Notes under the pieces: generated by a model
What the model was told of the DNA's origin: nothing
What the model saw: only the letters and a program-made list of their open reading frames with translations
Databases searched by the model: none
Part shown: positions 14,293 through 60,618 of the stretch, one piece after another
Layout: each line of letters starts with the position of its first letter
How positions within the stretch are numbered: position 1 is the stretch's first letter
Made by a program: the position numbers and the translations under genes
Assembly (NCBI GenBank): GCA_023131895.1
Contig: JAGLYZ010000002.1
Coordinates: 240,474 to 304,473 of the forward strand
Origin: Candidatus Parcubacteria bacterium
Lineage (GTDB): Bacteria > Patescibacteriota > Minisyncoccia > Minisyncoccales > JAGMDC01
Length of the DNA stretch: 64,000 nt
Reading direction: 5' to 3'

Positions 14293-16338
14293 ATGAACTT
14301 AATTATTGTAGAAAGTCCAACGAAATCAAAAACAATTCAGCAATTTTTAGGGCCTAAATACAAGGTCATTTCTTCATATGGCCATATCCGCGATTTGCCG
14401 AAAAGCGAATTAGGAATTGATATAGAAAACGATTTTAAGCCAAAATACATTATCCCTTTAAAAGCAAGAAAAACTGTTAACTCTTTAAAAAAAGATTCTC
14501 AAAAAGCAGACCTGCTTATTCTGGCTACTGATGAAGACAGAGAAGGAGAAGCAATTGCCTATCATCTAAGCCAGATTTTAAATTCAAATGGTAAAAAACA
14601 TCAGAGGATTGTCTTTCATGAAATAACTAAACAGGCGATTGAACAAGCACTAAAAAATCCTCGTGATATAGATATGGATCTTGTTGACGCCCAGCAAGCA
14701 AGAAGAATTTTAGACCGTTTAGTTGGCTATAAACTCTCCCCTCTTTTATGGAAAAAAGTTGCCAGAGGGCTCTCTGCAGGAAGGGTTCAGTCAGTGACAG
14801 TTCGGCTTGTGGTAGATCGGGAAAGAGAAATTGAAAATTTTAAGCCAGAAGAATATTGGACAATTATCGCCCATCTTGAAAAATACATCGAGAACAGTTC
14901 TCGATGTATTGAAGCGCTTTTGGTTAAAAAAAACGGCAAAGTAATTCCTAAATTAGGGATTAAAGTAAAAAAAGAAGCAGAAAAAATAATTGAAGATTTA
15001 AAAGGAGCAGAATACAAAATTTCAAATATTGAAAAAAAAGAAACTAAAAGAAATCCTTTGCCTCCATTTACTACTTCTACTTTACAGCAAGAATCATGGA
15101 GAAGGCTGCGTTGGCCAGTAAGACATACAATGAGAATTTCCCAGCAGCTTTATGAAAAAGGATTTATCACCTATCATAGAACCGATTCTTTAAATTTATC
15201 TGAAATATCTTTATTTTCCGCTAAAAAATTTATTATTAATAGCTTTGGAAAAGAATATTGGGCTGGATTTTTGAAAAAATACAAAACAAAAACAAAAGCA
15301 GCTCAAGAAGCCCACGAAGCTATAAGGCCTGCTTATCCTGATAAAAAGCCAAACAAAATAAAAGAAAAACTAGATGATAATCAATTTCGGCTCTATGATT
15401 TGATTTGGAGAAGATTTATTGCTTGTCAAATGAGCCAAGCTCGTTTCGATTCCACTACTGTTGACATCTCTGCCAAAAACTATATTTTTAGGGCTTCTGG
15501 ACAAGTATTGAAGTTTGATGGTTTTCTAAAAGTGTACCCTTTGAAATTTGAGGAATCAGAGTTACCTATTTTAGAAAAAAATGAAGTTTTAAAATTAAAA
15601 AAGCTTGTTCCTTCCCAGCACTTTACCCAGCCGTTGCCTCGCTATACTGAAGCTGGTTTAATTAAGGTTTTGGAAGAAAACGGCATTGGCAGGCCGTCAA
15701 CCTATGCGCCAACAATTTCTACTATTCAGGATAGAAATTATGTTCAGAAAAATGAAAATAAAAAGTTTGAACCGACAGAAATAGGAATTATTGTAAATGA
15801 TCTTTTGGTTGAACATTTTCCTAAAATTGTAGATATGAAATTCACAGCAGAAATGGAAAAGGATTTAGATGAAATCTCTGAAGGCAAGAAAAAATTGGTT
15901 CCAGTAATACAAGAATTTTATAAACCTTTTGAAAAAAACTTAAAGGCAAAAGAAAAAGAAATAGATAAAAAAGAAATTGCTGAAGAAAAAACAGATGAAA
16001 ACTGCCCTGAATGCGGCTCGCCATTGATAAAAAAAATGGGCAGATATGGAAAATTTTACGCTTGTTCCGGCTTCCCAAAATGCAGATATACCAAACCAAT
16101 AGAGAAACCAAAGCTTGGAATAAAATGCCCAAAATGCGAAAAAGGAGAAATAGTTGAAAAAAGAACTAGAAAAGGAAAAATTTTTTACGCTTGCAATCGC
16201 TACCCGGAATGCGATTTTGCCTTATGGGACAAACCTATAAATGAAAAATGCCCTGAATGCGGTTCTCTTTTAATTCAAACAAAAAAAGGCAAAATCAAAT
16301 GCTCAAACAAGGAATGCGATTATGTTAGAGATTCTTAA
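14293..16338 (+). CDS. topA: DNA topoisomerase I
   Basis: 681 aa with a Toprim N-terminus (IIVESPTKSKTI), active-site region ITYHRTDS and three C-terminal CxxC...CxxC zinc ribbons. Confidence 0.94.
   Translation: MNLIIVESPTKSKTIQQFLGPKYKVISSYGHIRDLPKSELGIDIENDFKPKYIIPLKARKTVNSLKKDSQKADLLILATDEDREGEAIAYHLSQILNSNGKKHQRIVFHEITKQAIEQALKNPRDIDMDLVDAQQARRILDRLVGYKLSPLLWKKVARGLSAGRVQSVTVRLVVDREREIENFKPEEYWTIIAHLEKYIENSSRCIEALLVKKNGKVIPKLGIKVKKEAEKIIEDLKGAEYKISNIEKKETKRNPLPPFTTSTLQQESWRRLRWPVRHTMRISQQLYEKGFITYHRTDSLNLSEISLFSAKKFIINSFGKEYWAGFLKKYKTKTKAAQEAHEAIRPAYPDKKPNKIKEKLDDNQFRLYDLIWRRFIACQMSQARFDSTTVDISAKNYIFRASGQVLKFDGFLKVYPLKFEESELPILEKNEVLKLKKLVPSQHFTQPLPRYTEAGLIKVLEENGIGRPSTYAPTISTIQDRNYVQKNENKKFEPTEIGIIVNDLLVEHFPKIVDMKFTAEMEKDLDEISEGKKKLVPVIQEFYKPFEKNLKAKEKEIDKKEIAEEKTDENCPECGSPLIKKMGRYGKFYACSGFPKCRYTKPIEKPKLGIKCPKCEKGEIVEKRTRKGKIFYACNRYPECDFALWDKPINEKCPECGSLLIQTKKGKIKCSNKECDYVRDS
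14884..14908. repeat. GAGAAC-N-GTTCTC family palindrome inside topA
   Basis: tacatcgagaac-a-gttctcgatgta, with 12-bp perfect arms. In frame, encoding YIENSSRCI. Confidence 0.85.
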
Positions 16339-16912
16339 GAATCTGGAAATCTTTTTTGAGAATTTCCTTCATGCTTGGATTATAGGTTGCTGCAGCTGGA
16401 TGATAAAGAGAAACAATTTTCACCCTGTTAAATTCTCTCACTTCAAAAACTTTTCCATGAATCTTGCTTATTCCCTCAATTTTATCTTTCAGGCCGTATT
16501 TCTCAAAAATAAAAGCTGTAGAAAAATTACCCAAAGCGCAAATTGCTTTGGGTTTTATGATTTCAATTTGTTTCAAAAGATAAGAAGTGCAGGCCTCTAT
16601 TTCTTCTGTTTTAGGATTGCGATTTTCTGGAGGACGGCATTTCAGGATATTACAAATATAGACATCTGTTCTCTTAATTCCTACAGAGCTTAAAAGCTCG
16701 TCTAAAATTTTACCAGCTGCTCCGCAAAAAGGCCGACCAGTCTTGTCTTCTGACGCACCAGGCGCCTCGCCAATAAACATTATTTCTGCTTCATGGTTTC
16801 CCTGTCCAATAACAGGCAGACCTCGTGTTTTATAAAGTGAGCACTTTTTACATTGGAGAACTTCCTCTTTTATTTCTTTAAGTTCTTTTTCTATTTTTTT
16901 AAGTTCCTCCAT
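16325..16912 (-). CDS. udg: Uracil-DNA glycosylase, family 4
   Basis: 195 aa with CxxC near the N-terminus and GEAPGASED, a family-4 UDG motif. The 3' end overlaps the topA 3' end by 14 nt. Confidence 0.88.
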   Translation of the reverse strand: MEELKKIEKELKEIKEEVLQCKKCSLYKTRGLPVIGQGNHEAEIMFIGEAPGASEDKTGRPFCGAAGKILDELLSSVGIKRTDVYICNILKCRPPENRNPKTEEIEACTSYLLKQIEIIKPKAICALGNFSTAFIFEKYGLKDKIEGISKIHGKVFEVREFNRVKIVSLYHPAAATYNPSMKEILKKDFQILKNL

Positions 16913-18026: not shown

Positions 18027-18714
18027 ATCTTTTAATGGTTTTCAGAATCTTTTTATAATTTTTTTCTTTACAAATAATCCTTCCATTAACTATTACATTA
18101 GTAATATTTGGTTTTAAAAATTTTAAAATTTCTCCAGAGTGAGTAATCAAGAGAATTGAAATATCTTTTGCGAGCAGTTCTTTTTTAATTATCTCTGCTA
18201 CTTCTTTTATTTTCTTTAAATCCAAGCCAGAATCAATCTCATCAAAAATTACTAGCTTTGGTCTTAAAGATAAAATCTGTAATAATTCTGACATTTTTTT
18301 CTCTCCACCGGAAAAATTAACATTAATCTCTCTATCTAATAAGTAGAGCGAGAACTGTTCTCGCTCTATCAGAGCGAGAACAGTTCTCGCTCTAGATCTC
18401 GCGTGGATCTTCTCTAATAATTGAGAAAGTTTTACTCCTTTTACAGCTGGCGGATTTTGCCAAGTTAAAGCAATCCCTAATTTAACTCGTTTTTCAGGAG
18501 AAAGTTTGGTAATATCTTCTTTATTAAAAAAAATCCTGCCTTCTATAATTTTAACATTCGGATTCCCTAAAATCACTTGAGCAAGAGTGGATTTCCCGCT
18601 GGCATTTGGACCAAGAAGAGCTTGTATCTCCCCTTTTTTTATTGTTAAATCAATCCCTTCTAATATCTCCTTACCATCGCCTGAAACTTTTAAATTTTTA
18701 ATTTCTAAAAGCAT
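17980..18714 (-). CDS. sufC: Fe-S cluster assembly ATPase SufC
   Basis: 244 aa ABC ATPase with Walker A GPNASGKST, signature FSGGEKK and Walker B VIFDEIDSGLD. Confidence 0.9.
   Translation of the reverse strand: MLLEIKNLKVSGDGKEILEGIDLTIKKGEIQALLGPNASGKSTLAQVILGNPNVKIIEGRIFFNKEDITKLSPEKRVKLGIALTWQNPPAVKGVKLSQLLEKIHARSRARTVLALIEREQFSLYLLDREINVNFSGGEKKMSELLQILSLRPKLVIFDEIDSGLDLKKIKEVAEIIKKELLAKDISILLITHSGEILKFLKPNITNVIVNGRIICKEKNYKKILKTIKRYGYEKCKKCELLSDK
18345..18410. repeat. Two tandem 23-bp GAGAAC-N-GTTCTC palindromes plus an AGATC..GATCT palindrome inside sufC
   Basis: agagcgagaac-t-gttctcgctct at 18345-18367, agagcgagaac-a-gttctcgctct at 18371-18393, then agatctcgcgtggatct. In frame, encoding SRARTVLALIEREQFSLY. 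Confidence 0.9.
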
Positions 18715-19624: not shown

Positions 19625-19641
19625 CCGAGAACGGTTCTCGG
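19625..19641. repeat. Intergenic GAGAAC-N-GTTCTC palindrome
   Basis: ccgagaac-g-gttctcgg lying between the ccdA-like stop and the SDR start. Confidence 0.8.
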
Positions 19642-19645
19642 TATT

Positions 19646-20476
19646 TTACTCCATTAACATTAATAATTCTGGATTGACTAATAAAATTATTCCCAAGGCA
19701 ATCATTATTACTCCGCCAATAAGTTTTATTATTTGTGTTTGCTCTTTACTAATCTTTTTACCTTTAAAAAACCAGCCAAATAATAATATCACTGCGCTAA
19801 GAGGTATGATGTAAATAAAGTTGTAAAATAATAAATAGATATAATAGGAAATAGTTCCTTCAAAAACTTTTGCTGACAATACGCCTGTATAAATTATGGG
19901 CCAGCCAGCAGTGCAAGGCAGTTCCACTAAAGAAGAAAATAGAGCAAGGACAACAGAAGCTGTGATTAAGGCAGGAAGAGAGCCGTATTTTATAACCTCT
20001 TTCATTTTTTCTATCTTTTGCATTAAAAGAGGTTTATGCTTTTCTTGAATCATTAGAGTGACACCTTTTCTAAAGGCGAAAAATTCTTTGCAATTAATTG
20101 TTCCGGCAATTAAAGCTACAATAGCAATAATTATCCTTAAAGGATCAATAAATCCTATATAACGAAATACATTTAACCAGGCAGCCATAAACATAAGATA
20201 AACAAAAAAAATAACTGATACAAAAGTTAAACCAACAATAAATATCCTTTTTCTGCTTTCAGATACAGAAATCAGTAAAACAAGCAAAAAAGTTAAAACC
20301 CATAAAGTACAGGGATTAAAACCGTCAATAATAGCAATAATAAAAGTGAACCAAGGTAAAGACAAACTCAAACCGAGCTCTTTAAAGGTCTCTGGAGAGG
20401 CCTGTTTGGCTAAGAAAAAAAGGCCTATCAACCCTATAGCAATTAAAACAGCAATGATAATTTTATCTTTTTCCAT
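19646..20476 (-). CDS. DsbD/CcdA-family transmembrane thiol:disulfide electron transporter (putative)
   Basis: 276 aa polytopic protein with two membrane-embedded cysteines in NPCTLW and LPCTAGW contexts. Confidence 0.55.
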   Translation of the reverse strand: MEKDKIIIAVLIAIGLIGLFFLAKQASPETFKELGLSLSLPWFTFIIAIIDGFNPCTLWVLTFLLVLLISVSESRKRIFIVGLTFVSVIFFVYLMFMAAWLNVFRYIGFIDPLRIIIAIVALIAGTINCKEFFAFRKGVTLMIQEKHKPLLMQKIEKMKEVIKYGSLPALITASVVLALFSSLVELPCTAGWPIIYTGVLSAKVFEGTISYYIYLLFYNFIYIIPLSAVILLFGWFFKGKKISKEQTQIIKLIGGVIMIALGIILLVNPELLMLME

Positions 20477-20942: not shown

Positions 20943-20945
20943 TTT

Positions 20946-23390: not shown

Positions 23391-24748
23391 TATTTAGGAA
23401 TTCTTTCTACGATTTTATAAACAAATTCTTCTAATTTTTTAAATTCGTTTTTTGTCTTTGCTTCATAAGCAATAGAAATTTTTGCTTCAGTATTAGACGC
23501 TCTAAATAAAACCCAGGAATCCTTAAAAATAATTTTAAGACCGTCTAAATAATCTAATTTATATTTTTGCCTGAAGTTAATCTTCAAATCCTCTATAAAC
23601 TTAAACTTATCTTTTTTTCTTATCTCAACCCTCATAGAATTAAAATAATAGTTTTGAACATCTTTATAGGCCTCTGATAATTTTATTTTCTTCTTTTCTA
23701 AATATTCTAAAATTTTCAAGGTTGCAAAAGCGGCATCATCTGCACCAAAAATTTCTCTAAAGAAATAGTGTCCGGAAATTTCTCCTCCTATTACTGCTTG
23801 GGAGTCTAAAAGTTTTTTCTGAATAAAAACATGTCCTACCCTACAACCTATAGGCAGCCCTTTATAATATTTAATTATCTCATCAATTACGCTTGAACTC
23901 AAAGAATCATGAACAACTTTTTCTTTTTTATCTTCTAAATAACTTTTTATTAAGATACTGAATAATTGCGCAAAATTAAGGATTTTTCCATTCTCATCTA
24001 CGGCGACAATCCTGTCAGCGTCTGCGTCATAGCCAAATCCACAATCGGCTTTTTGGGCAATTACTGTCTTTTGTAGTTCTTTTAAGTTCTCTTTTTTGGG
24101 CTCTGGTTCTCTATTTGGAAAATTTCCATCTAATTCACAAAATAAGGGCTCGTATTTTATATTAAATCTATCTAACAACTCAAATAAAACAGTAGAAATA
24201 ACACCATTACCGCAATCAATAACAACTTTTTTATTTGCTTCTTTTAAAGTGATTTTCTTAGATATAAAATTAATATAATCCTCTAAAACAAATTTTTCTT
24301 TGATAATACCTTTGCCCTTTTTGAATTTTTCAGAAAGAATTAATTCTTTAATTTCCTCTAATCCATTTTCTACTCCAACTCCTACACCTTCTTTATTATA
24401 AAGTAAAAAACCTTGATACTCTTTCGGATTATGGCTTGCAGTGATAGAAATTCCCCCATTAAAACCATAATAGCTGATAACAAAAATTATTAATGGAGTA
24501 GGAACAATCCCAATATCAATCACTTCAGCGCCGCTTTCAGTCAATCCTTTGACTAATTCCTTTTTCAGAGATTCTCCTCCAATTCTGCAATCTCTGCCAA
24601 CCACAATTTTTCCTTGGTTAAAAGTTGCAAATGATTTACCAAGCCTATAAGCAAATTCTTCATTTATTTGAGAAGGATAAATTCCTCTAATATCATAAGC
24701 CCTAAAAATATATGGATCAATCTTTGTCATATTTTTTGGCAAATTCAA
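23390..24748 (-). CDS. Phosphomannomutase/phosphoglucomutase/phosphoglucosamine mutase family
   Basis: 452 aa with active-site TASHNP and Mg site GYDADADR. Confidence 0.88.
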   Translation of the reverse strand: MNLPKNMTKIDPYIFRAYDIRGIYPSQINEEFAYRLGKSFATFNQGKIVVGRDCRIGGESLKKELVKGLTESGAEVIDIGIVPTPLIIFVISYYGFNGGISITASHNPKEYQGFLLYNKEGVGVGVENGLEEIKELILSEKFKKGKGIIKEKFVLEDYINFISKKITLKEANKKVVIDCGNGVISTVLFELLDRFNIKYEPLFCELDGNFPNREPEPKKENLKELQKTVIAQKADCGFGYDADADRIVAVDENGKILNFAQLFSILIKSYLEDKKEKVVHDSLSSSVIDEIIKYYKGLPIGCRVGHVFIQKKLLDSQAVIGGEISGHYFFREIFGADDAAFATLKILEYLEKKKIKLSEAYKDVQNYYFNSMRVEIRKKDKFKFIEDLKINFRQKYKLDYLDGLKIIFKDSWVLFRASNTEAKISIAYEAKTKNEFKKLEEFVYKIVERIPK

Positions 24749-25301
24749 AAGTTTTTTTATTTAATTCAAAGTATTTTTCTGACACCACCTTCTCCATTGC
24801 TTTTAAAATAGAATTTGGCTTTAAAGGAATAATTTTCTTGTGAGAAGCATAACTTAATAAAAAAACGCCTGCCACTACATTTTTACCAAGCTCTTTTTCA
24901 CAAATATCAGCTGCTGGAATTAAAATTATATTATTGCTTATTTTTCTAAGCGATTTTAAAATTTCCTGCTCTTTTAATAATTTCTCTCCTAAAATTGGAA
25001 TAAAAAACCTATTTATCAAAAAAATTGTATTTTTATTTGCAAAATAAACGCCTTTCAAACTCTCCTGTATTTCTAATGCCAAAATTAAATCTGCCCCTCC
25101 CTGTATGACTAAAGGCGAAGATATTTCTTTGCCAAACCTAATATGCACCTCTACTGAACCTCCTCTTTGAGACAAACCATGAAGCTCTGATGTTTTTACA
25201 TCATAGCCCTCAATTAAGGCTGCTTCAGCCAAAACTTGAAGCAGGGTAATCAATCCCTGCCCACCTGTCCCAACAATAACTATGTTAAATTCTTTTTTCA
25301 T
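24717..25301 (-). CDS. iorB: Indolepyruvate/2-oxoacid:ferredoxin oxidoreductase beta (gamma-type) subunit
   Basis: 194 aa with the family pattern GTGGQGL...HGLSQRGGSV. Confidence 0.8.
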   Translation of the reverse strand: MKKEFNIVIVGTGGQGLITLLQVLAEAALIEGYDVKTSELHGLSQRGGSVEVHIRFGKEISSPLVIQGGADLILALEIQESLKGVYFANKNTIFLINRFFIPILGEKLLKEQEILKSLRKISNNIILIPAADICEKELGKNVVAGVFLLSYASHKKIIPLKPNSILKAMEKVVSEKYFELNKKTFEFAKKYDKD

Positions 25302-25344
25302 ATTTTGTTATTTTAGCACAAAAAGTATTGATTCGCAATTCCTG

Positions 25345-25380
25345 AAAATAAAAAAAACGGTTCTGGAAAACCAAAACCGG
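25345..25380 (-). terminator. Rho-independent terminator after the PRTase-like fragment
   Basis: On the minus strand, ccggttttgg-tttt-ccagaaccg (9-bp stem, 1 mismatch) is followed by a run of T. Confidence 0.5.
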
Positions 25381-25413
25381 ATTATTTTTTGTTTTCTTTA
25401 TCTCCTTATTCCG

Positions 25414-25644
25414 CTATGCCACAAATCTGGCAAATCGTTTCCAATTCGGTTTTGGCGGTAAAGCTTCGGATCCTTTCTTGCACAGTGGACATTCTTCTGC
25501 TGGCCAATTATGGGCTTCTGTTTCCAGCAACGCAAGAACTTTATGGTCACGATAGTTCTTCGGCACTTTTTCAGGACGATGAACAATTGTGATTACAACT
25601 ATCTTCCCATAAAGGATGCCTGCTTTCCTCTCTGCATTGCTCCA
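25414..25644 (-). pseudogene. Type I phosphoribosyltransferase (PyrE-like) C-terminal fragment
   Basis: A 76-codon open frame with no start codon. It reads ...KAGILYGKIVVITIVHRPEK...NWPAEECPLCKKGSEALPPKP, resembling PRTase C-termini. It overlaps the end of the pyrD-like ORF in another frame. Confidence 0.4.
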
Positions 25645-26146
25645 TCAATTTTCTAAAAAGAAGAACATCTTTTTCCCAGTCAATTTTAACACTAGGGCAA
25701 GAAACGTTTAGTTCAATGGCTATTATTGCTAAATCATTCAACCGCCTGATCATTTCCAGATATTCTTTTATGGAAAACCCTCCGATAGAGACAATTTTGG
25801 GAACTTTCTCTGTTTTTGGATAAATCTCACTGATATATCTTTTGATTCCAATATTCCACCAGCCAAAAGCATTAATCCATCCGTTGGGAATTTTTCGCAA
25901 AACTGTTGGCCGTTCATTCAGTATCTGAATACCCCAAAGTGTCTGTTTTAAAATCCCATTAGGTTTTATTGGACTAACTCCAAAATTTCCCTGCCGCTGT
26001 TCCAATGTTAGAGTCCTGGTTACTACTGCGCCAAATATAGTCGGGTCAATAAACGGTTTTGCCCAAAGGTATTTATTGCCATAAGCCAAAGCGCCGGAAG
26101 AAACAAAAAACCTATTTTCTACTTCTATCCCATTCAGATTTGTCAT
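25571..26146 (-). pseudogene. Dihydroorotate dehydrogenase-like gene, truncated (N-terminal ~185 aa only)
   Basis: DHODH class-1 blocks GAVVTRTLTLEQRQGN, INAFGWWNIG and ELNVSCP are present, but the C-terminal third of the barrel is missing. About 47% GC in a 100-nt sample, with an SD-like AGAGGTGA upstream. Confidence 0.5.
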
Positions 26147-26235
26147 TTTATCACCTCTTTTTGTTTTTCAGCCCACACTTAATTTAAAAAGGGCTGTTTT
26201 AGCCCTATCAAATTTTTGATGAATTGTTAAACAAT

Positions 26236-27933
26236 CTATTTTTTCTGCACGAATTTGCAGGGATGTTTAGCAATTATTACTGAAACCTCTTTTTTGTTTA
26301 AAAAATCCTTAATTGCTTTTACAAATTCTTCCTGTTTGACCGGGTCAATTGTTTTTAAATGCTTAACTCCGCAGGCTTTAACAATATTTTCAATACTTAC
26401 TCCATCTGGTTCAGTCGGCGCGCTTGGATGCGGCTGATGGCCAGTCATAGCAGTAGTGGAATTATTCATAATAATTATTAATGGGTTTGATTTATTAAAA
26501 ACCGTGTTAATCAAACCAGTAATGCCGGAATGGAAAAAAGTTGAATCACCAATAAAAGTAATCAGTTTTTGCTCGCTTACCTTCTTAATCCCATGAGCAA
26601 TACCAATTGAAGAACCCATACAGTAAAGATAATCCTGAACATTGTGGGGAGAAAATCCTGCCAACATATAACAGCCAATATCACCGCCGAAAATTACATC
26701 CATACCTTTTGCAGCTTTTTTGACGCCTCCAAAAACCAACCAATAAGGACAGCCATGGCAAAGCTGAGGATGACGACGAGGAATTTTTCTAGCTTCGCCA
26801 GATCTGGCAGAGCCAAACAATTCCAATTTTTTATCAGTAAATTTGGCGATTGCCTGAATAACTATTTCAGGTTTCAACTCGCCGACTTCTGGTACTAAAT
26901 CTTTGCCAATAATCTTTAAATCACAATTTACTTCTTTTGCCATTCTTATTACTTCATTTTCTAAATATGGTTCTAATTCTTCTACTATTAAAACCTTATC
27001 CAAATTTTTAATAAAATTTTTAATTTTTTTCTCTGGCAAGGGATGAAAAAATCCAAGCTTTAAAACCGGCAAAGAAATATTTAATTCCTTTAATGCTTCT
27101 TTCACATAGAGATAAGAAACTCCGGAAGTAATAATTCCGAGCTTCGCAGAGACCCGACCTCCGCCAATTCTGGCGGAGGTCGGGTCTCTTCCGGCTTCTC
27201 TTCTAATTAAATTCAATTTGCTTTTCTCGCTATACTCACGTATTTTTTCAATCTTATCCAAAAGTTCCTTATGCATTTCCATAACTCGAGGCGGCATTGT
27301 TACAAATTTCTTATTGTCCTTTATAAATTTTCCATGGAGAACTGTTCTCAATGTTTTTAATTTGTCTAGTTTGACTGGAGCGCTTTGGTGCGCTACTCTT
27401 GTTGTCTCTCTAATCATTATCGGAATTTCAAATTTTTCAGATAAATCAAAAGCAAATTTAATAAAATCCTTACATTCTTGAGGGATTGACGGTTCAAGAA
27501 CAGGAATATTGGCTAAAGCCGCAAAAGCCCGGCTGTTCTCTTCTGATTGAGCCGAGCTATGGCAGGAAGGATCATCTGCTATTAAAATTACCATTCCTCC
27601 CTTAACTCCAGAATAAACCAATGGAAGTAAAAAATCAGAAGCAACATTTAAACCAAAATTTTTCATTGCCACCAAAGAGCGCAAACCAGAAAAAGAAGCG
27701 CCTCCTGCTGCTTCTATCGCGACTTTTTCATTAACAGAAAACTCAAAATATAAGCTTTTAATTTTGTCTTTAGAGTTTTGAATCTGATAAAAACTATTAC
27801 CGATCTCTGAAGCCGGCGTCCCAGGATAAGTGGAAACAAACTGAACGCCTGCTTCCAAAGCGCCTCTTACTATTGCCTCGTTTCCTAAAAGAATAACTTT
27901 TTTGTTTGGTTTCTCTAAAATATTTTCAAACAT
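26236..27933 (-). CDS. iorA: Indolepyruvate:ferredoxin oxidoreductase alpha subunit (TPP-binding)
   Basis: 565 aa with N-terminal LLGNEAIVRGALEAG...STYPGTPASE and TPP block GDIGCY. No C-terminal 2x[4Fe-4S] CxxCxxCxxxCP motifs are visible. Confidence 0.8.
   Translation of the reverse strand: MFENILEKPNKKVILLGNEAIVRGALEAGVQFVSTYPGTPASEIGNSFYQIQNSKDKIKSLYFEFSVNEKVAIEAAGGASFSGLRSLVAMKNFGLNVASDFLLPLVYSGVKGGMVILIADDPSCHSSAQSEENSRAFAALANIPVLEPSIPQECKDFIKFAFDLSEKFEIPIMIRETTRVAHQSAPVKLDKLKTLRTVLHGKFIKDNKKFVTMPPRVMEMHKELLDKIEKIREYSEKSKLNLIRREAGRDPTSARIGGGRVSAKLGIITSGVSYLYVKEALKELNISLPVLKLGFFHPLPEKKIKNFIKNLDKVLIVEELEPYLENEVIRMAKEVNCDLKIIGKDLVPEVGELKPEIVIQAIAKFTDKKLELFGSARSGEARKIPRRHPQLCHGCPYWLVFGGVKKAAKGMDVIFGGDIGCYMLAGFSPHNVQDYLYCMGSSIGIAHGIKKVSEQKLITFIGDSTFFHSGITGLINTVFNKSNPLIIIMNNSTTAMTGHQPHPSAPTEPDGVSIENIVKACGVKHLKTIDPVKQEEFVKAIKDFLNKKEVSVIIAKHPCKFVQKK
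27149..27188. repeat. Perfect 17-bp-stem GC-rich hairpin inside iorA
   Basis: gagacccgacctccgcc-aattct-ggcggaggtcgggtctc. In frame, encoding GRDPTSARIGGGRVS. Confidence 0.92.
27337..27349. repeat. GAGAAC-N-GTTCTC core inside iorA
   Basis: gagaac-t-gttctc, read in the gene as LRTVLH. Confidence 0.7.
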
Positions 27934-28479
27934 CTATTTATTATTTGTTTTATACTTTTCAACTGCTTTTTGAATTATTTCCATTGCCTTTTCTTTTTTC
28001 TCAAAATCTTCTACTTTCACATATTTATATTTCTCCGGCTCTAATTTCTTACAATCTTCAAAAAAGTTTTTAATCTCTTTCTTATGATGTTCACCAATAT
28101 CTTCAATGTCTTGAATTTCTTTAAATCGCGGATCAACTTTTTCTACTGGTACAGCTATAATTTTATTATCAATCCCTGCTTCATCTTTCATTAAAAGCAA
28201 ACCAACTGGTCTGGCTTTAACAACGCAACCAGAAAAAGTAGGATAAGTAGTTAAAAGCAAAACATCCAAAGCGTCGCTGTCTTCTGAATGTGTCTGAGGT
28301 ATAAAACCATAATCGCAAGGATAAAATAAGGACGAATAATTAACTCTGTCTAACTTAAAGCATCCTTTTTCTTCATCATATTCATACTTGTTAGCACAAC
28401 CTTTTGGAATATCAATTACTACATTTATTTCCTCTGGCAAATTATCGCCAGCTGGAATGTCTTTATAAAGATTGGTCAT
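27934..28479 (-). CDS. ppa: Inorganic pyrophosphatase (family I)
   Basis: 181 aa with metal-binding blocks EIPKGCANKYEYD and DSDALDVLLL. Confidence 0.9.
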   Translation of the reverse strand: MTNLYKDIPAGDNLPEEINVVIDIPKGCANKYEYDEEKGCFKLDRVNYSSLFYPCDYGFIPQTHSEDSDALDVLLLTTYPTFSGCVVKARPVGLLLMKDEAGIDNKIIAVPVEKVDPRFKEIQDIEDIGEHHKKEIKNFFEDCKKLEPEKYKYVKVEDFEKKEKAMEIIQKAVEKYKTNNK

Positions 28480-28484
28480 ATTTT

Positions 28485-30302
28485 TTATTCTACAGTTACA
28501 CTTTTTGCTAAATTTCTGGGCTTGTCTATATCCAAACCAAGTTCCAAGCCAAGATAAGCAGCAAAAAGTTGTAAAGGTATAATACTTAAAATTGGAGTAA
28601 GCATCTCAAGGGTTTTTGGAATATAAATTACGTCATCAGCCAAATTTTTTATTTCTTCATTTCCTTCAGTAGCCACAGCTAAAATCTTTCCGTGTCTTGC
28701 CTTAATTTCTTCTATGGCATTTTTCATTTTATCATAAACTGAATCAGAAGGACAGATAACACAAGTGGGAAAATTCTCATCAATTAAAGCAATTGCTCCA
28801 TGTTTCATGTCTCCTGCAGGATAAGCTTCAGCATGAATTTTCCAAGCAATTTCTTTTAATTTATGAGAACCCTCTAGGGCAATAGGAAAATTATATTTTC
28901 TCCCCAAAAAATAAAAATTCCTATATTGAGAATATTTCCTTGCCAATTCTTTGATGTAATCGGCCTGACTAAAAATCTTTTTAGACAACTCAGGCAATTT
29001 CTGCAGTTCCTCCAAAATCTTTTTACCAACAACTAAACTCATTTCTCTCTGTCTGCCAAGTCCAACAGTAATCAGAACCAAAATAGACAATTGGGAAATA
29101 AATGCTTTAGTTGAGGCAACAGCAATTTCTGGACCAATGCGACAATAAACACCAGCATCTGTTTCCCTGGCAATTGAAGAACCGACTCTATTCACTAATC
29201 CTAAACACAAACATCCTTTTCTTTTTGCTTCTTTCACTGCCTCTAAAGTATCTGCTGTTTCACCTGATTGGGAAATAACTAAAACAGCTGTTTTATCGTC
29301 TAAAATAGAATTCTTATAACGAAACTCGGAACCTATCTCCAATTTTGTCGGAATCTTAGCATACTCTTCAAACATATATTCTCCTACTTTGCCGGCGTAA
29401 CTTGCAGTGCCACAGGCAACAATAACGACTTTTTCTATCTTCTTTAATTGTTCTGAAACCTGTTCTAACCCTCCTAATTTCGCTAATCCCTGCTCTAAAA
29501 TCATTCTTCCGGCAATGCTTTTTTCTATTGTTGATGGCTGTTCAAAAATCTCTTTTAACATAAAATGTGAAAAACCCTGTTTTTGCGCCTCTTCTGTCTC
29601 CCATTCAATTTTTTCAATTGGTTTTTCTTTTAATATAAAAAAATTATTTGGGGACAAAACAGCGATTTCATTATCATCTAATGTAATAACCTGATTAGTA
29701 TGTGAAATAATAGCAGAAGTATCTGAAGCTACTAAAAACTCATCATTGTTGATTCCTAAAATTAAAGGTGAACCAAGTTTTGCCGCAACAATCTTTTCCG
29801 GGTCTTTTCGGGCAATAACTGCCAAAGCATAAGCTCCTTTAACTTTTTTCAGCGCTTGTCTTACAGCTTCTTCTAAATTGCTTTTGAAGCAACTCTCTAT
29901 TAAATGAGCGATAACCTCTGTGTCTGTTTCGCTAATAAATTGATGCCCTTCTGACATTAACTGCTCTTTCAATTCTTTATAGTTTTCAATAATACCGTTG
30001 TGGACGACATAAATGTTTTTTTTACAGTCCCAATGCGGATGCGCGTTTATTTCACTTGCTTCGCCATGAGTTGCCCAGCGAGTATGCAGTATAAAAGGAT
30101 TACCGTTGAAAGGCGATTGAGAAAATTTATTCTCAAGCTCGCTTATCTTTCCTTTTGCTTTCAAACAAAAAATCTCCTGTTTTTCAGGATTAAATACTGC
30201 CATTCCAGCAGAATCATATCCTCTGTATTCCAAACGCTTCAAGGCGTTCAGACCAATTTGGGGATCATTTTTTTTACCAATGTAGCCAACGATGCCGCAC
30301 AT
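28485..30302 (-). CDS. glmS: Glutamine--fructose-6-phosphate aminotransferase
   Basis: 605 aa with N-terminal MCGIVGY, two SIS domains and the C-terminal ...KPRNLAKSVTVE. Confidence 0.95.
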   Translation of the reverse strand: MCGIVGYIGKKNDPQIGLNALKRLEYRGYDSAGMAVFNPEKQEIFCLKAKGKISELENKFSQSPFNGNPFILHTRWATHGEASEINAHPHWDCKKNIYVVHNGIIENYKELKEQLMSEGHQFISETDTEVIAHLIESCFKSNLEEAVRQALKKVKGAYALAVIARKDPEKIVAAKLGSPLILGINNDEFLVASDTSAIISHTNQVITLDDNEIAVLSPNNFFILKEKPIEKIEWETEEAQKQGFSHFMLKEIFEQPSTIEKSIAGRMILEQGLAKLGGLEQVSEQLKKIEKVVIVACGTASYAGKVGEYMFEEYAKIPTKLEIGSEFRYKNSILDDKTAVLVISQSGETADTLEAVKEAKRKGCLCLGLVNRVGSSIARETDAGVYCRIGPEIAVASTKAFISQLSILVLITVGLGRQREMSLVVGKKILEELQKLPELSKKIFSQADYIKELARKYSQYRNFYFLGRKYNFPIALEGSHKLKEIAWKIHAEAYPAGDMKHGAIALIDENFPTCVICPSDSVYDKMKNAIEEIKARHGKILAVATEGNEEIKNLADDVIYIPKTLEMLTPILSIIPLQLFAAYLGLELGLDIDKPRNLAKSVTVE

Positions 30303-30304
30303 GC

Positions 30305-30387
30305 CAATTTTGTCCGCGAAGCAAGCCGTAAGGCAAAGCTAAGCGGAAACAAAATTGAGCATCCCGATACTAATTTGTAAAATTAGT
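30305..30387. repeat. Structured GC-rich intergenic element between leuS and glmS
   Basis: Outer stem caattttgtccgc / gcgga(aa)caaaattg enclosing gcc-gtaa-ggc. A second perfect hairpin follows: actaattt-gta-aaattagt. Confidence 0.7.
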
Positions 30388-30407
30388 GGCGAGATAACTC
30401 AAAAATT

Positions 30408-32849
30408 TTAACAAACAATATTAATTAATCTTCCTTTAATAAATACCACCTTCTTGATGGGCTTGTCCTCTATCCATTTTTTAACTTTTTCTCTCTCTAA
30501 TGTCAATCTTTTTGCTTCTTCTTCTGAAATGTCTATTTCAACTTCTATTTTGTCGCGCATTTTGCCATTAATCTGGATGATTAAAAAGATTTTTTCTTCT
30601 TTAATTAACTTCGGATTATACTTGGGCCATTTTTCTTTAAAAATAGATTTTTTATAACCTAAATTTTGATAAATCTCTTCTGAAATATGCGGCGCAAAAG
30701 GAGAAAGCAAAATCAACATTTTTTCAATTGTATCTTTGCCAACTTCTTTTTTATCTTCCAAACCCAAATTTACAAACTTCATAAAACCAGCAATGATGGT
30801 ATTGAATTTTGTTGCTTCTAAATCCTCATCTATTTTTTTATTAAGTTGATGAATCGCTCTTATTATTTTGGGACTGCTTTTTTCGTTTTTAGAACACTCC
30901 AAACTCAATTTCCAAACTTTTTCTAAAAACCGATAAACACCTTTCACTCCTTTAGCGCTCCAGACAATTGCCTGACCAAATGGACCCATAAACATTTCAT
31001 AAACACGCAAAGTATCTGCTCCGTATTCTTTAATAATATCATCAGGATTAACTACATTGCCAAATGACTTTGACATTTTTCTTCCATCTTCAGCTAAAAC
31101 TATACCATGAGAAGTCCTTCGAGTATAGGGTTCTGCCTGCGGAGCAATGCCAATATCAAAAAGAAATTTATACCAAAAACGAGAATATAGAAGATGCAAA
31201 GTTGTGTGCTCCATGCCGCCGTTATACCAATCTACTGGCAGCCAATATTTTAATTTTTTGGAATCAGCTAACGATTTATTATTATCAGTATCAGTATAGC
31301 GCATAAAATACCAAGAAGAACCAGCCCAGTTAGGCATAGTGTCGGTTTCTCTTTTAGCTGGTCCCTTGCATTTTGGACACTTGATATCAACCCAATCTTT
31401 AATTTTTGCTAAAGGCGATTCACCAGTGCCTGTTGGCTGATACTTTTCAATATAAGGAAGTTTTACTGGTAAATCTTTCTCCGGCACTGGAATTGCACCG
31501 CATTTTTCACAATGAATAATTGGCATCGGTTCTCCCCAGTAATGCTGTCTGGAAAAAACCCAGTCCCTTAGTCTGTAGTGAACTGTTTTTCTGCCAAAGC
31601 CCTGCTTTTCAGCACATTTTAGCATTTCATCTCTTGCTTTTTTTGAACTCAAACCCGAAAATTGTCCGGAGTTAATCAAAACTCCGTCTTCTACAAAACA
31701 TTCATTTAACTTGGGGAGAACGGTTCTCGTTGATTTCGTCAACGAGAACCGTTCTCGCGAGACTATTACTTCTTTGACTGGCAATTTATATTTTTTAGCA
31801 AAATTAAAATCTCGTTTGTCATGAGCAGGAACTACCATTACTGCCCCTCCTCCATAAGTCGCCACTATATAATCTCCTATCCAAATAGGAATTTTTTCAT
31901 TATTTACTGGATTAATACAATAAGAGCCAGTAAAAACTCCTGTTTTTTCTTTTTTTAATTCTGTTCTTTCAAAATCACTTTTTTTCTTTGATTGTTCAAT
32001 ATAATTAATTACTTTCTCATTGTTGCCATCTGTAATTAGCTTTTCAATCAAGGAATGTTCCGGAGCTAAGACAACAGCTGTCACCCCGAAAATAGTGTCA
32101 GTCCTAGTAGTAAAAACTTTTATTGTGTCTTGAGAATTTTCAATTTTGAAATTAATTTCTATGCCATAACTTCTGCCAATCCAATTTATCTGCTGGGCTT
32201 TAATTTTTTCTAAATAATCAAGCTTTTCTAAATCATCTATCAGCCGGTCAGCATATTTAGTGATTTTTAACATCCATTGTTTTTTTATTTTTTTTTCTAC
32301 TTGAGTATTGCAGCGCTCGCACTTACCGGAAACCACTTCTTCATTGGCTAAGCCAATTTTGCAGGAAGGACACCAGTTAATAGGTATTTCTGCCTGATAA
32401 GCCAAGCCCTTTTCAAAAAGCTGAAGAAAAATCCATTGAGTCCATTTGTAATATTTTGTGTCAGTGGTATTAATTTCCCTATTCCAATCAAAAGAAAGAC
32501 CTAAATTTTTAAATTGTCTTTTAAAATTGGCGATATTTTTTTTAGTTGCTTCTTGAGGATGAATCCCTGTTTTTATAGCATAATTTTCTGCCGGCAAACC
32601 AAAAGCATCCCAGCCAATAGGAAACAAAACATTATATCCTTCCATTCTTTTTTTTCGAGCAACAGCGTCTAAGGCAGTATAAGGTCTTAAATGACCAACA
32701 TGAAGCCCTTCTCCTGAAGGATAAGGAAATTCAATTAAAATATATTTTTTAGGTCTCTTTGAAAAATCTTGAGCTCTATATATTTCTGATTTTTCCCAAG
32801 TTCTTTGCCATTTTGGCTCAATTTTTTGCGGTTCGTATTTTTTCATCAT
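30408..32849 (-). CDS. leuS: Leucine--tRNA ligase
   Basis: 813 aa class I aaRS with HVGH, the KMSKS motif (RKMSKSFGN) and a CP1 editing domain. Confidence 0.95.
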   Translation of the reverse strand: MMKKYEPQKIEPKWQRTWEKSEIYRAQDFSKRPKKYILIEFPYPSGEGLHVGHLRPYTALDAVARKKRMEGYNVLFPIGWDAFGLPAENYAIKTGIHPQEATKKNIANFKRQFKNLGLSFDWNREINTTDTKYYKWTQWIFLQLFEKGLAYQAEIPINWCPSCKIGLANEEVVSGKCERCNTQVEKKIKKQWMLKITKYADRLIDDLEKLDYLEKIKAQQINWIGRSYGIEINFKIENSQDTIKVFTTRTDTIFGVTAVVLAPEHSLIEKLITDGNNEKVINYIEQSKKKSDFERTELKKEKTGVFTGSYCINPVNNEKIPIWIGDYIVATYGGGAVMVVPAHDKRDFNFAKKYKLPVKEVIVSRERFSLTKSTRTVLPKLNECFVEDGVLINSGQFSGLSSKKARDEMLKCAEKQGFGRKTVHYRLRDWVFSRQHYWGEPMPIIHCEKCGAIPVPEKDLPVKLPYIEKYQPTGTGESPLAKIKDWVDIKCPKCKGPAKRETDTMPNWAGSSWYFMRYTDTDNNKSLADSKKLKYWLPVDWYNGGMEHTTLHLLYSRFWYKFLFDIGIAPQAEPYTRRTSHGIVLAEDGRKMSKSFGNVVNPDDIIKEYGADTLRVYEMFMGPFGQAIVWSAKGVKGVYRFLEKVWKLSLECSKNEKSSPKIIRAIHQLNKKIDEDLEATKFNTIIAGFMKFVNLGLEDKKEVGKDTIEKMLILLSPFAPHISEEIYQNLGYKKSIFKEKWPKYNPKLIKEEKIFLIIQINGKMRDKIEVEIDISEEEAKRLTLEREKVKKWIEDKPIKKVVFIKGRLINIVC
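31716..31756. repeat. Nested double GAGAAC-N-GTTCTC palindrome inside leuS
   Basis: gagaacggttctcgttga-tttcg-tcaacgagaaccgttctc. The two 18-nt arms are perfect inverted copies and each arm contains its own palindrome. In frame, encoding SRERFSLTKSTRTVLP. Confidence 0.9.
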
Positions 32850-32929
32850 TGAACTATAATTATATCTTAATCTTACAAAAAAAATCAGCCTATTACAAGC
32901 CGAATATAAAATGTGTCTGTATAAAAAAC

Positions 32930-33790
32930 TTAAATTTTAAACAACTTTTTAGCGTTTGTACTGGTGATTTCAGCTATTTTCTCAAGAGGGATATTTTTAA
33001 TTTTAGCAATATGTTCGGCAATGTATTTGATAAAAATGGGTTCATTTCGGCCCGCCTTCGCTAAAGCTTTGGCGGGCAAAGGCGGAGTTAAAAAAGGACA
33101 ATCTGTTTCAATCAAAATTCTATCTAATGGCGTTTTTTTAATTATTTCATCAAGGTCTAATTTAAAAACAATTCCATTAAAACCTAAATAAAATCCCATT
33201 TCTAAAAATTTCTCTGCCTGCTCCCAAGTACCGGTAAAAGAATGGATTACCGAGGTCAGACCTTCTATAGGAGGTCTGACCTCAAGTATTTCTATTAAAT
33301 CGTCGTGAGCCATTCGGCAGTGAAAGATTACTGGCAGATTTAATTCTTCGGCTAATTTTAATTCCTGCTCAAGAAGTGCTTTTTGTTTTTCTTTAAAAAG
33401 CGCAAGCTTTTTCTTTGTTTTCGGCTTATAGTAATAATCCAATCCAATTTCGCCAATAGCCACTACTTTTTTAGATTTTGCTAATTCTTTGTATTTATTG
33501 AAATTAAAATTCTCTTCTAATATATCTTCTAAGTTTTGAGTTTTAAGTTGTGGCTTTGACTTTTGAGTTTTGACTTTTGAGTTTTGTTTAATATTAATAG
33601 GGTGAAGTCCAATCGCCGCATATACTCTTTCATTATAATCCTTTGAAATTTCAACTGCTTTTTTTGAGGTCTCATAATTTGTCCCTACATTTATCATCCA
33701 AATATTATTATCTAAACATCTCTTTATAACTTCATCTCTATCTCTGTCAAAAGCAGCAAAATTAAGATGAGCATGAGTATCTACAAGCAT
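32930..33790 (-). CDS. tatD: TatD-family metal-dependent hydrolase/DNase
   Basis: 286 aa with MLVDTHAHL, the ...ETDCPFLTP... blocks and NEP. About 30 aa longer than usual because of three repeat insertions. Confidence 0.9.
   Translation of the reverse strand: MLVDTHAHLNFAAFDRDRDEVIKRCLDNNIWMINVGTNYETSKKAVEISKDYNERVYAAIGLHPINIKQNSKVKTQKSKPQLKTQNLEDILEENFNFNKYKELAKSKKVVAIGEIGLDYYYKPKTKKKLALFKEKQKALLEQELKLAEELNLPVIFHCRMAHDDLIEILEVRPPIEGLTSVIHSFTGTWEQAEKFLEMGFYLGFNGIVFKLDLDEIIKKTPLDRILIETDCPFLTPPLPAKALAKAGRNEPIFIKYIAEHIAKIKNIPLEKIAEITSTNAKKLFKI
33049..33085. repeat. AAGCTT-centred GC-rich element inside tatD
   Basis: ggcccgccttcgctaaagctttggcgggcaaaggcgg. Its reverse complement closely matches argS 47682-47708. 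Encodes PLPAKALAKAG between the CPFLTP and RNEP motifs. Confidence 0.8.
33252..33283. repeat. Perfect 12-bp-stem hairpin inside tatD
   Basis: gaggtcagacct-tctatagg-aggtctgacctc. In frame, encoding EVRPPIEGLTSV. Confidence 0.9.
33531..33587. repeat. G/T-rich ~57-nt repeat shared with ileS
   Basis: aagttttgagttttaagttgtggctttgacttttgagttttgacttttgagttttg is about 80% identical to 44810-44866. Encodes NSKVKTQKSKPQLKTQNL. Confidence 0.85.
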
Positions 33791-59331: not shown

Positions 59332-60618
59332 CTAAAATAGGGTTTTCTGGTTTGGCGACTTTTTCCGCTCAGCTTTAGAAAAAATTCTGACTTTGCCGAA
59401 AACACCGTCATAACCTGGCTCAACATCAACCCTTCCCTGTCTTACTCTTATTATTCCTTCAGTAATCTCTGGCAAGGTTGCTGACTGTAAATCTGTTTTG
59501 GGAATATCTAATAAAATTTTAAACTCCTGACCAAATTTTTCAATTAGATTTTTATACTCTGCTACTACTCGCTTTGTGCCTGTATTTTGACCCAAACTTT
59601 CAGCAATTATTTCTTCTAAGAGAACCATGCTTTTAAAAGGAACTACTCCTTCTGGTTTAAATCCCTCTGGCTTATCTGCTAACTCTTCTACTCGGTTTAA
59701 AACTCCAATAGTTAATGGCTTGCCGCAATTAGGGCATATATTGTTATATTTTTTTGATTCTAAAGGCGATAAGCTAATTTCGCAAGTTCTATGTCCGTCA
59801 TAATGGTATTTTCCTTCTTCAGGGTAAAACTCAATAGTGTAAAGAAACTTTTTGGGATTTTTTGATTTCATTGCTTCCATAATAGAAAAATAATCTAATT
59901 CTGTATCAAAAACATTTGCTTCCCTGCCAAGTTTAGGGCCACTGTGCGCGTCACTGTTTGAAATTATAGCAACCTTTCGACCATCAGGTATTCGCCAGAG
60001 CATTGCCGGGTCCGCGCTTAAACCGCTCTCTATTGCATAAATATACTTTGTGTAATCTTCAAAACATTCTTCCAAAGAATCAAAGCCTGACTTTGAACCA
60101 AATATACCAAACCATGGAGTAAAACAATGTGCTGGAACAATTAAACAATCTTGGGAAGTATTTAAAACGATTTTTGCTAATTCTTTTACATCCAAACCTA
60201 AAATTGGCCTGCCATCAGATTTTAAGTTTCCAATCCCGCTCAATTGAGTATTGATTTTTTCAACAACTTCAAAAGAAGGCGCGAAAACTATGATATGAAT
60301 TTTACGAACTCTTCCATTTTTAGAATAAATACAGCTAATTTCTGAAGTTAGAATAAACCTTGTCTCTTTTTCGCGTAGTTTCGCGTTTAGTCCTGCGTGG
60401 TTTCGCGAACCAGGGCTTTTTATTCTAAAAAGCCCTGGTTCTGCTGGTTCCAATTTCTCTTTTATATTTTGAAACCATTCTGGATGAGTAAAATCACCTG
60501 TTCCTAAAACTTTAATCCCTTTGATCTTTGCCCATTTATCTAAATTTTCTAAATCCATTTGCGGGCTGGTCGCTCTTGAATATTTAGAATGAAGATGAAA
60601 GTCAGCTATAAATTTCAT
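59332..60618 (-). CDS. endoQ: Endonuclease Q (EndoQ) family, PHP domain plus zinc finger
   Basis: 428 aa with ADFHLHSKYSRATS, GTGDFTHPEW, NSDAHS and CPNCGKPLTIGVLNRVEELAD. It is collinear with archaeal EndoQ as I recall it. Confidence 0.75.
   Translation of the reverse strand: MKFIADFHLHSKYSRATSPQMDLENLDKWAKIKGIKVLGTGDFTHPEWFQNIKEKLEPAEPGLFRIKSPGSRNHAGLNAKLREKETRFILTSEISCIYSKNGRVRKIHIIVFAPSFEVVEKINTQLSGIGNLKSDGRPILGLDVKELAKIVLNTSQDCLIVPAHCFTPWFGIFGSKSGFDSLEECFEDYTKYIYAIESGLSADPAMLWRIPDGRKVAIISNSDAHSGPKLGREANVFDTELDYFSIMEAMKSKNPKKFLYTIEFYPEEGKYHYDGHRTCEISLSPLESKKYNNICPNCGKPLTIGVLNRVEELADKPEGFKPEGVVPFKSMVLLEEIIAESLGQNTGTKRVVAEYKNLIEKFGQEFKILLDIPKTDLQSATLPEITEGIIRVRQGRVDVEPGYDGVFGKVRIFSKAERKKSPNQKTLF
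60368..60441. repeat. TTTCGCG direct repeats (x3) plus perfect 16-bp-stem hairpin inside endoQ
   Basis: gaaccagggcttttta-ttc-taaaaagccctggttc at 60407-60441, preceded by tttcgcg at 60369, 60379 and 60401. In frame, encoding PGLFRIKSPGSRNHAGLNAKLRE. Confidence 0.85.

Follow-up and report, generated by a model that had tools for sequence, protein, structure and literature searches.

How a perfect, GC-rich hairpin comes to lie inside a protein-coding gene of an AT-rich bacterium, and what keeps its two arms complementary, are the questions raised by iorA, the gene for the alpha subunit of indolepyruvate ferredoxin oxidoreductase, in a stretch of 64,000 nucleotides from a Candidatus Parcubacteria bacterium (contig JAGLYZ010000002.1; the whole stretch is referred to below as the window). 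The hairpin is one copy of a dispersed palindromic repeat of Nealsonbacteria-like Parcubacteria, in the candidate phyla radiation (CPR), and is not specific to iorA; in this gene it is an insertion in a tolerant, hypervariable inter-domain linker and not conserved protein sequence. For the source genome the data are those of the 64-kb window, and all other loci, designated here by L-numbers, come from stretches of its relatives and from a metagenome collection.

The original prediction placed a hairpin at 27149-27188, read in frame within iorA, and it is present exactly as quoted, although the maximal palindrome is slightly larger (27148-27189, 42 nt), with fully (100%) complementary arms of 19 bp on either side of a 4-nt loop. 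It begins at codon phase 0, codons 249-262 of iorA give RDPTSARIGGGRVS, and the frame is continuous through the insert, without a stop. The product of 26236..27933 is identical to a protein named by NCBI as indolepyruvate ferredoxin oxidoreductase subunit alpha of Candidatus Parcubacteria bacterium. The GC content is 64% for the palindrome and 68% for its arms, and is 36% for iorA (29% at third positions) and 33% for the window. The palindrome folds as RNA with -50.2 kcal/mol (z = -7.6) and also folds as DNA (z = -9.5), with 0 of 200 shuffles as good in either case. Even with 3 mismatches allowed, the 17-nt arm occurs just twice in the window, both times in the iorA hairpin. A strain variant from another sample and an independent assembly has an iorA of 98.9% nucleotide identity, with 19 differences elsewhere in the gene and the identical 42 nt, and the palindrome is therefore no assembly artefact.

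We regard the palindrome as an insertion because the segment falls in a hypervariable inter-domain linker. In an alignment of 120 IorA homologs (64-100% identity) the insert lies between the conserved blocks SEKSxLNxI and KxGIITSG, and the linker between them has a length anywhere between about 4 and about 45 residues and no conserved sequence; the suggestion that the segment was inserted is thus borne out, there being no conserved residues in it among these homologs. An AlphaFold model based on a 43-sequence alignment, a moderate model with a mean of 67.5, has predicted local distance difference test (pLDDT) scores below 50 at residues 247-260, between a helix and a strand, and is also low-scoring at residues 178-222, which contain a second palindromic site (27337-27349). 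In L085 (3516-5237) the same IorA linker carries a different GC-rich repeat in two copies, encoding ..VEEPQATKQ.. and ..HCEEPSPQGEATKQS, so that this linker has received repeats more than once.

The family was defined by scanning the metagenome collection with the pattern GACCCGACCTCC-N(0-24)-GGAGGTCGGGTC, contigs of >55% GC being set aside as apparently unrelated. The 38 loci found reduce to 27 unique low-GC copies with the 14-bp arms GAGACCCGACCTCC and GGAGGTCGGGTCTC, all folding as perfect stems, and these, together with a sister hairpin in tatD of the window, are related copies of the kind that the original prediction had in mind. The window copy and at least six others lie within open reading frames (ORFs), and the remaining copies are intergenic. 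One intragenic copy is in YchF, where it adds about 13 residues in a variable loop and where the relatives of the protein are named Candidatus Nealsonbacteria; further confirmed host ORFs are those for MiaA, TruB, a ComF-like phosphoribosyltransferase and a Wzy_C+TPR membrane protein. All three frames are used (RDPTS..GGRVS, ETRPP..EVGS and RPDL..RSGL), and the conserved entity is therefore the nucleic acid and not the peptide; the element has no stop codon in any frame and every intragenic copy preserves the frame of its host. A set of 11 intergenic copies have a common 21-22-nt loop, CYAAAGTTCTTTTCTTACTATT, in unrelated flanks, and the element is therefore a discrete unit of about 50 nt. Separately, the Wzy_C/TPR protein of L092, L094 and L107 has further repeat-like peptide inserts (SFPRKRESS, HSRESGNPVNKK), which differ among the three contigs.

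Of 125 loci examined none has distant or unpaired arms, which might be the ends of a longer element, apart from L090, with a second hairpin, and L111, with a repeat next to a scaffold gap. The L090 hairpin (3210-3264) is a second copy with a single T.G mismatch. The viral contigs scanned gave 0 matches to the hairpin, and there is thus no sign of a phage vehicle. [quoted passage not shown] The repeat thus appears to be uncatalogued, without earlier description in Rfam or the searchable literature, neither search having been exhaustive.

The unit is 34-66 nt long, mostly 42-54, with 14-bp core arms that start (G/A)GAGACC and a loop of 0-24 nt. There is a trade-off between stem and loop, loops of 16-24 nt going mostly with stems of 13-15 bp and loops of 0-8 nt with stems of 18-25 bp. 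The inner stem of L112 (AACAG|CTGTT) has the first bases of the L120 loop (AACAGTAAG...), as is expected if a long loop is overwritten by the complement of its own start. Among 13 copies there are alternative Watson-Crick pairs at 9 of 15 stem positions, with the outermost pair in all four forms, and non-Watson-Crick pairs make up only 2 of 182 core pairs, both of them T.G. Diverged copies are altered in both arms together, as in L095 (GTGACC/GGTCAC), L117 (GCGACC/GGTCGC) and L119 (GAGATTCG/CGAATCTC), and further variants of both arms are found in L031 and the tatD hairpin of the window (G(A/G)GGTCAGACCTCC) and in L001 (GAGACCCGTTCTCG). The outer flanks are often symmetric, and the motif CCAAAGT is found again outside an arm, in both relations to the loop. 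Beside the base of the stem the pair is frequently G:T or A:C. This was considered as G.U enrichment that might be a sign of RNA selection, but was rejected, since on the transcribed strand of the intergenic copies it reads A.C. L119 has two neighbouring copies (499-539 and 677-717), one with compensated arms, and L094 (5853-5955) has a variant of the family with the arms GAGATCCGATCTC and GAGATCGGATCTC 77 nt apart.

The iorA site itself can be followed through other species. L001 (75% amino acid identity in IorA) has TGGACGAGACCCGTTCTCGTCCGTG|CACGGACGAGAACGGGTCTCGTCCA at the linker, with 25-bp arms and loop 0, and L002, L003 and L014 (71%) have AGGAGACCCGACCTCCTT-CATGAATA-AAGGAGGTCGGGTCTCCT, with 18-bp arms and an 8-nt loop, this version being obtained in all three assemblies. 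There are also linker palindromes in L007 (14-bp arms) and L010 (13-bp arms), and shorter stems of the GGAGGTC-N-GACCTCC kind in L018, L037, L008 and L035. The closest relatives, L004 and L005 (79% amino acid identity), have only a single-arm remnant, GGA AAT CCG ACT TCT (GGAAATCCGACTTCT), in which 11 of 15 positions agree with the left arm and the others have changed towards A/T, and in L087 the right arm stands alone (CGGGTCTCT). The codon phase of the arm or remnant is shared by five lineages (the window, L002, L001, L005 and L087), and one old insertion is therefore favoured over five independent ones. On this comparison of sequences the iorA insertion is probably old, and since then maintained, decayed or rebuilt, and not recent. 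The window and L002 agree at every nucleotide of the two 14-bp arms (28 of 28), whereas iorA overall is 70% identical and its third positions 51%. It follows that paired arms are conserved or renewed and that a widowed arm decays; a lone arm drifts towards AT. The original prediction had taken the perfect symmetry as a sign of either recent insertion or active maintenance, and of these it is maintenance that fits, since orthologous palindromes differ and yet are perfect and changes affect both arms, while the same site and phase in five lineages speak against a recent event.

On balance we favour the explanation that the hairpin is a selfish palindromic element, similar to RPEs or to repetitive extragenic palindromic (REP) sequences, that is tolerated in protein loops and whose symmetry is kept by hairpin-templated conversion. 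Such an element would be selfish, non-autonomous DNA that persists only at sites tolerant of the insert, in protein loops or intergenic spacers, and in iorA it would be translated as about 14 extra, harmless surface residues. The complementarity of the arms would be kept by copying at the DNA level with the hairpin as template, through template switching or intrastrand conversion, and the same copying could also lengthen the stem into the flanks and collapse long loops into longer perfect stems; the window copy, with its short loop and 19-bp stem, may be the product of such a collapse. A single template-switching step can create a perfect stem or repair one (PMC8794818), and the mechanism has been proposed for the perfect coding palindromes of the mitochondria of Nematomorpha (hairworms) (PMC6649704). 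Maintenance at the DNA level is preferred to RNA selection because wobble pairs are scarce, because symmetry extends through the centre of several copies, and because flanks acquire palindromic symmetry and loops collapse. That the arm sequence is conserved implies in addition either a putative trans-acting factor that would recognise the 13-mer GAGNNC-N-GNNCTC or repeated re-seeding from other copies.

Several observations weigh against this explanation. Perfection is not universal, as the long GC-rich inverted repeats in the loci of relatives have 0, 1 and 2 mismatches in 18, 17 and 39 cases respectively. Template switching preserves pairing and not sequence, so the identity of the arms in the window and L002 goes beyond what it alone would give. 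There is no consistent direct repeat around the 27 copies that could be a target-site duplication, and neither a mobilising enzyme nor an autonomous partner was found in the window and loci examined, so that mobility is deduced solely from the dispersed distribution. The 64 kb of the window hold one copy of the core type and one of the sister type. In co-directional gene pairs the long-loop intergenic copies have the same loop orientation relative to transcription in 6 of 6 cases, and many intergenic copies are within about 25 nt of a stop codon, which together give a hint of an RNA-level function for the family. Finally, in many related palindromes only one central base interrupts the symmetry (24 stems with loop 1, as against 2.8 expected), and this fits the site of a dimeric protein better than it fits a hairpin.

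A stronger version of the selfish-element explanation, to which we would give only a modest chance, is that Parcubacteria have an as yet undescribed class of self-maintaining coding palindromes, in which a putative dedicated trans-acting protein would seed 13-bp units (GAGNNC-N-GNNCTC) into genes and hairpin-templated synthesis would then grow, symmetrise, flip and collapse them. The candidate reader in this version, equally speculative, would be a hairpin- or cruciform-specific nuclease, a recombinase or an HUH-type enzyme.

The most serious alternative, which we nevertheless consider unlikely, is that an RNA or DNA structure is selected at this position of iorA for a function of its own, such as a pause between domains that serves co-translational folding, a determinant of RNase III cleavage or decay, or a stabiliser, the palindromes of other species being cases of covariation. 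It would account for a stable hairpin in the same linker in at least eight lineages with different sequences, for the joint changes of both arms in diverged copies and the strength of the RNA stem, for arm conservation above the gene average, and for the orientation bias of intergenic copies. However the structure is lost in the closest relatives (L004/L005) and in L087, a stem of at least 6 bp is missing from over half of the 38 IorA linkers examined, and unrelated genes as well as intergenic DNA have the identical arms. There are essentially no G.U pairs in the stems, and several copies are symmetric through the centre with 0-1 loop base, which RNA folding could not select. There is no terminator-like call for the 19-bp hairpin on either strand, nearby promoter-like and terminator-like matches are weak consensus only, and the mRNA directly 3' of the stem (GCGAAGCUCGG) lacks the U-tract of an intrinsic terminator. 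An internal translation start was also considered, as GGAGGU is present in the right arm, but it was rejected as there is no ATG, GTG or TTG at a suitable distance. The hairpin matches no Rfam family, the only matches of the window at the gathering score being a tmRNA gene (49920-50322) and one tRNA gene (1766-1849). An effect of the hairpin on iorA translation or mRNA decay is possible, although a role specific to iorA is unlikely because the same element is in unrelated genes and intergenic DNA, and for the extragenic copies the orientation bias hints at room for an RNA-level role, for example as a 3'-end hairpin.

The next alternative starts from the arms themselves, as each family arm is a 13-mer of the form GAGNNC-N-GNNCTC (GAGNNCNGNNCTC), of which the window has 10 sites as against 0.15 expected. 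They comprise the two arms of the iorA hairpin, one site in tatD and seven of the form GAGAAC-N-GTTCTC, these being in topA, in an ABC ATPase gene (two), in the intergenic region at 19627, in a second loop of iorA and in leuS (two). The second iorA site is as the original prediction described it; L006 has the same motif at the orthologous position, L086 has it there with one G.T mismatch and L001 in an extended form. The tatD hairpin, which the prediction had compared with that of iorA, is indeed as described and related, and represents a sister subfamily whose arms are also found in L031, there with a long loop. All 10 exact sites and all 5 with one mismatch cluster at 14890-33283 (about 18 kb), with 0 in the other 45.6 kb. 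In related Parcubacteria loci the half-sites are mainly GAGAAC, GAGGTC and GAGACC, and these groups are linked by the L001 palindrome, which mixes GAGACC and GAGAAC halves. Over 0.75 Mb of related loci there are 148 perfect stems (at least 8 bp, GC at least 40%) as against about 26 per shuffle, the excess being greatest at loops of 1 and 3 nt. The palindromes examined in the window (iorA, topA, ABC ATPase, leuS and tatD) are all in length-variable protein loops. That of leuS is kept in L005 with the loop changed, and for the ABC ATPase gene the L086 ortholog has the same core with different symmetric flanks, while the L005 ortholog has none. The symmetric flanks differ between orthologous positions also for leuS (window and L005) and for the second iorA loop (window, L006, L086 and L001). 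The coordinates are collected in Table 1.

Table 1. Palindromic features of the window and the iorA gene, in window coordinates
Feature	Position	Strand	Sequence or structure	Context
iorA, host gene	26236..27933	-		indolepyruvate ferredoxin oxidoreductase alpha subunit; 565 aa; Pfam POR_N + TPP_enzyme_C
iorA palindrome, left arm	27148..27166	n/a	AGAGACCCGACCTCCGCCA	27149-27162 = family core arm GAGACCCGACCTCC
iorA palindrome, left-arm 13-mer	27149-27161		form GAGNNC-N-GNNCTC	
iorA palindrome, loop	27167..27170		ATTC on + strand, GAAU in mRNA	
iorA palindrome, right arm	27171..27189		TGGCGGAGGTCGGGTCTCT	27175-27188 = family core arm GGAGGTCGGGTCTC
iorA second loop site	27337..27349		GAGAACTGTTCTC	codons 195-199, LRTVL; variable loop
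tatD hairpin	33252..33283		two GAGGTC-N-GACCTC 13-mers, one mismatched	length-variable TatD loop
leuS palindrome	31716..31756		18-bp arms, two GAGAAC-N-GTTCTC units	length-variable loop, LeuRS editing domain
ABC ATPase gene palindrome	18344..18394		24-bp arms, nested, two AGAGCGAGAAC-N-GTTCTCGCTCT units	
topoisomerase I (topA) palindrome	14882..14910		14-bp arms, AATACATCGAGAAC-A-GTTCTCGATGTATT	length-variable loop
Intergenic palindrome	19625..19641		CCGAGAAC-G-GTTCTCGG	4 nt downstream of stop of ORF 19646..20476 (-)

These 13-mers could be duplex sites of a dimeric protein that binds or processes DNA, with long palindromes as pairs of sites. The excess of sites, the three common half-site types, the symmetry about a single central base, the confinement of exact and one-mismatch sites to 14.9-33.3 kb of the 64-kb window, the conserved arm sequence and the retention of GAGAAC sites at orthologous positions in other species would all be in keeping with this, and the sites might serve as a signal for chromosome organisation, partition or uptake, or for recognition by a recombinase or nuclease. 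We think this rather unlikely, as no candidate protein was found and as it leaves unexplained the palindromy of flanks and loops over 18-25 bp, the near-constant length, and the discrete 50-nt unit with a conserved asymmetric loop. It is only partly a rival to the selfish element, because the bound protein could be the mobilising factor of the element.

Other repeats of the window and its relatives may be recorded here. In topA the orthologs of L005, L017 and L007 have a semi-conserved peptide, IEAxLQS, from a palindrome ATTGAAGC-NNN-GCTTCAAT, with a compensated form in L007 (ATTGCAGC-AGA-GCTGCAAT). A perfect hairpin with 16-bp arms, GAACCAGGGCTTTTTA-TTC-TAAAAAGCCCTGGTTC, is at 60407-60441 within an ORF (59332..60618) without a Pfam match, and one with a 9-bp stem, ACCCAAAGC-N7-GCTTTGGGT, is at 16529-16553 in a gene of the uracil-DNA-glycosylase family (16325..16912) and has a counterpart in L005 (19293-19317) with one loop base different. 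At 13631-13716, in the divergent intergenic region before a short plus-strand block with topA, direct and inverted AT-rich repeats (AAATGTTTA-like) form a cluster. L013 has three copies of another palindromic repeat, CCCCACCACTTTTC-NNN-GAAAAGTGGTGGGG, within 21 kb (5633-5663, 7706-7748 and 15968-16004). As regards the surroundings of iorA, there is a 934-nt gap between iorA and iorB (25302-26235) with a truncated ORF like that of dihydroorotate dehydrogenase (25571..26146, matching positions 53-160 of the 291 of Pfam DHO_dh), and in L004 and L086 iorB begins only 4-15 nt after iorA; the content of the gap looks like an inserted pyrD fragment or pseudogene.

The remaining explanations fare less well. 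It is improbable that the hairpin originated de novo within iorA, when native linker sequence was duplicated in inverted form by a template switch, with neither a repeat family nor mobility. The creation of perfect stems by template switching in one step (PMC8794818) would allow it, and related copies do show palindromic flanks and collapsed loops and relatives do have one-arm versions, but it is largely refuted by the metagenome scan, with the same 14-bp arms in 27 unrelated loci including other genes, and arms of 68% GC in a 33% GC genome, with G/C third positions, are unlike native sequence. Still less probable is that the 42 nt are not translated, through ribosome bypass or removal from the mRNA, as for the byp elements of Magnusiomyces mitochondria or the gap of T4 gene 60. 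A 19-bp GC-rich stem is a strong obstacle to ribosomes, and PMC6649704 cites one known system in which GC-rich hairpin inserts in AT-rich coding genes are bypassed; however the intragenic copies are always open in frame and stop-free, in all three frames, and there is no stop after a take-off codon. An artefact of assembly or amplification (a fold-back chimera) can be dismissed: amplification can generate perfect palindromes, but the independent sample and assembly have the identical 42 nt, the L002 version is in three assemblies, and the insert is short and in frame. The likeness of the stem ends to a BsaI site (GAGACC/GGTCTC) and of the arm to a segment of the tRNA variable arm or T-arm were both dropped as short coincidences.

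With regard to known systems, the closest in behaviour, as compared by description, are the RPEs of Rickettsia, which are likewise dispersed hairpin repeats of an AT-rich reduced genome, in frame in unrelated housekeeping genes. RPEs are translated, and the peptide segments thus added are compatible with the function of the protein (PMC10969869, PMC1779305). RPEs differ in being about 100-150 bp long and having a conserved peptide in one frame, whereas the units in Parcubacteria are 34-66 nt and use three frames. According to PMC6649704 the identity of RPE arms is lost over time, whereas long-resident copies here stay perfectly paired. The mitochondrial palindromes of Nematomorpha are similar in being perfect inverted repeats in genes that are gained, lost or changed between species and yet remain perfect, and active arm-to-arm conversion and a parasitic character have been proposed for them (PMC6649704). 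However they are up to 284 bp, encode conserved regions and are not a family with conserved sequence, whereas here the arms are short, the loops of the proteins hypervariable, and the arm sequence common to many loci and genomes.

REPs and the bacterial interspersed mosaic elements (BIMEs) are also short GC-rich dispersed palindromes, and resemble the intergenic copies, which are just downstream of stops and orientation-biased. REPs are extragenic and imperfect, 20-40 nt long, and present in hundreds of copies; their head is GTAG or CGTC (PMC3733652), and they have a link to genes for REP-associated tyrosine transposases (RAYTs). In contrast the aligned copies here have no GTAG or CGTC head, the window copy is intragenic, the copy number is apparently low and no RAYT was seen, as judged from 64 kb and short metagenome stretches only. 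MITEs too have a short non-coding core between terminal inverted repeats, and they too are at times inserted in frame within genes (PMC10969869, PMC2229807). The present element differs in that it has no target-site duplication, is at or below the lower limit of MITE size, and has flanks that become palindromic, which is not a product of transposition. We know of no autonomous insertion sequence with these ends.

There is also some likeness to HIP1, the highly iterated palindrome of cyanobacteria, and to matS-type sites, which are 13-mers of 6-1-6 architecture, as short palindromic words are strongly over-represented in coding regions and GAGNNC-N-GNNCTC has that same architecture. The density here is about 1 per 6 kb, the words are regionally clustered, and they lie within longer perfect hairpins; to our knowledge there is no methyltransferase or binding protein for these 13-mer words. 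Bypass elements such as byp and T4 gene 60 break the frame or carry a stop after a take-off codon, and have a matching landing codon, whereas the iorA frame is open throughout.

The genomes of CPR bacteria, or Patescibacteria, are tiny and gene-dense, with scant room between genes, and a palindromic repeat within their essential genes would show how selfish DNA persists there. The repeat accounts for some of the odd GC-rich insertions and length variation in CPR proteins, and so bears on annotation, alignment and structure prediction. Its unusual feature among in-frame palindromic repeats is the long-term upkeep of perfect symmetry, and the iorA site offers a natural system for the concerted evolution of hairpin arms in bacteria, presenting the same puzzle as the mitochondrial palindromes of hairworms, with a conserved 13-mer that points to a putative recognition factor. 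Should the tentative version with a dedicated protein prove to be true, it would be a new mode of selfish-DNA propagation, with continuous remodelling of surface loops in the essential proteins of ultra-small bacteria.

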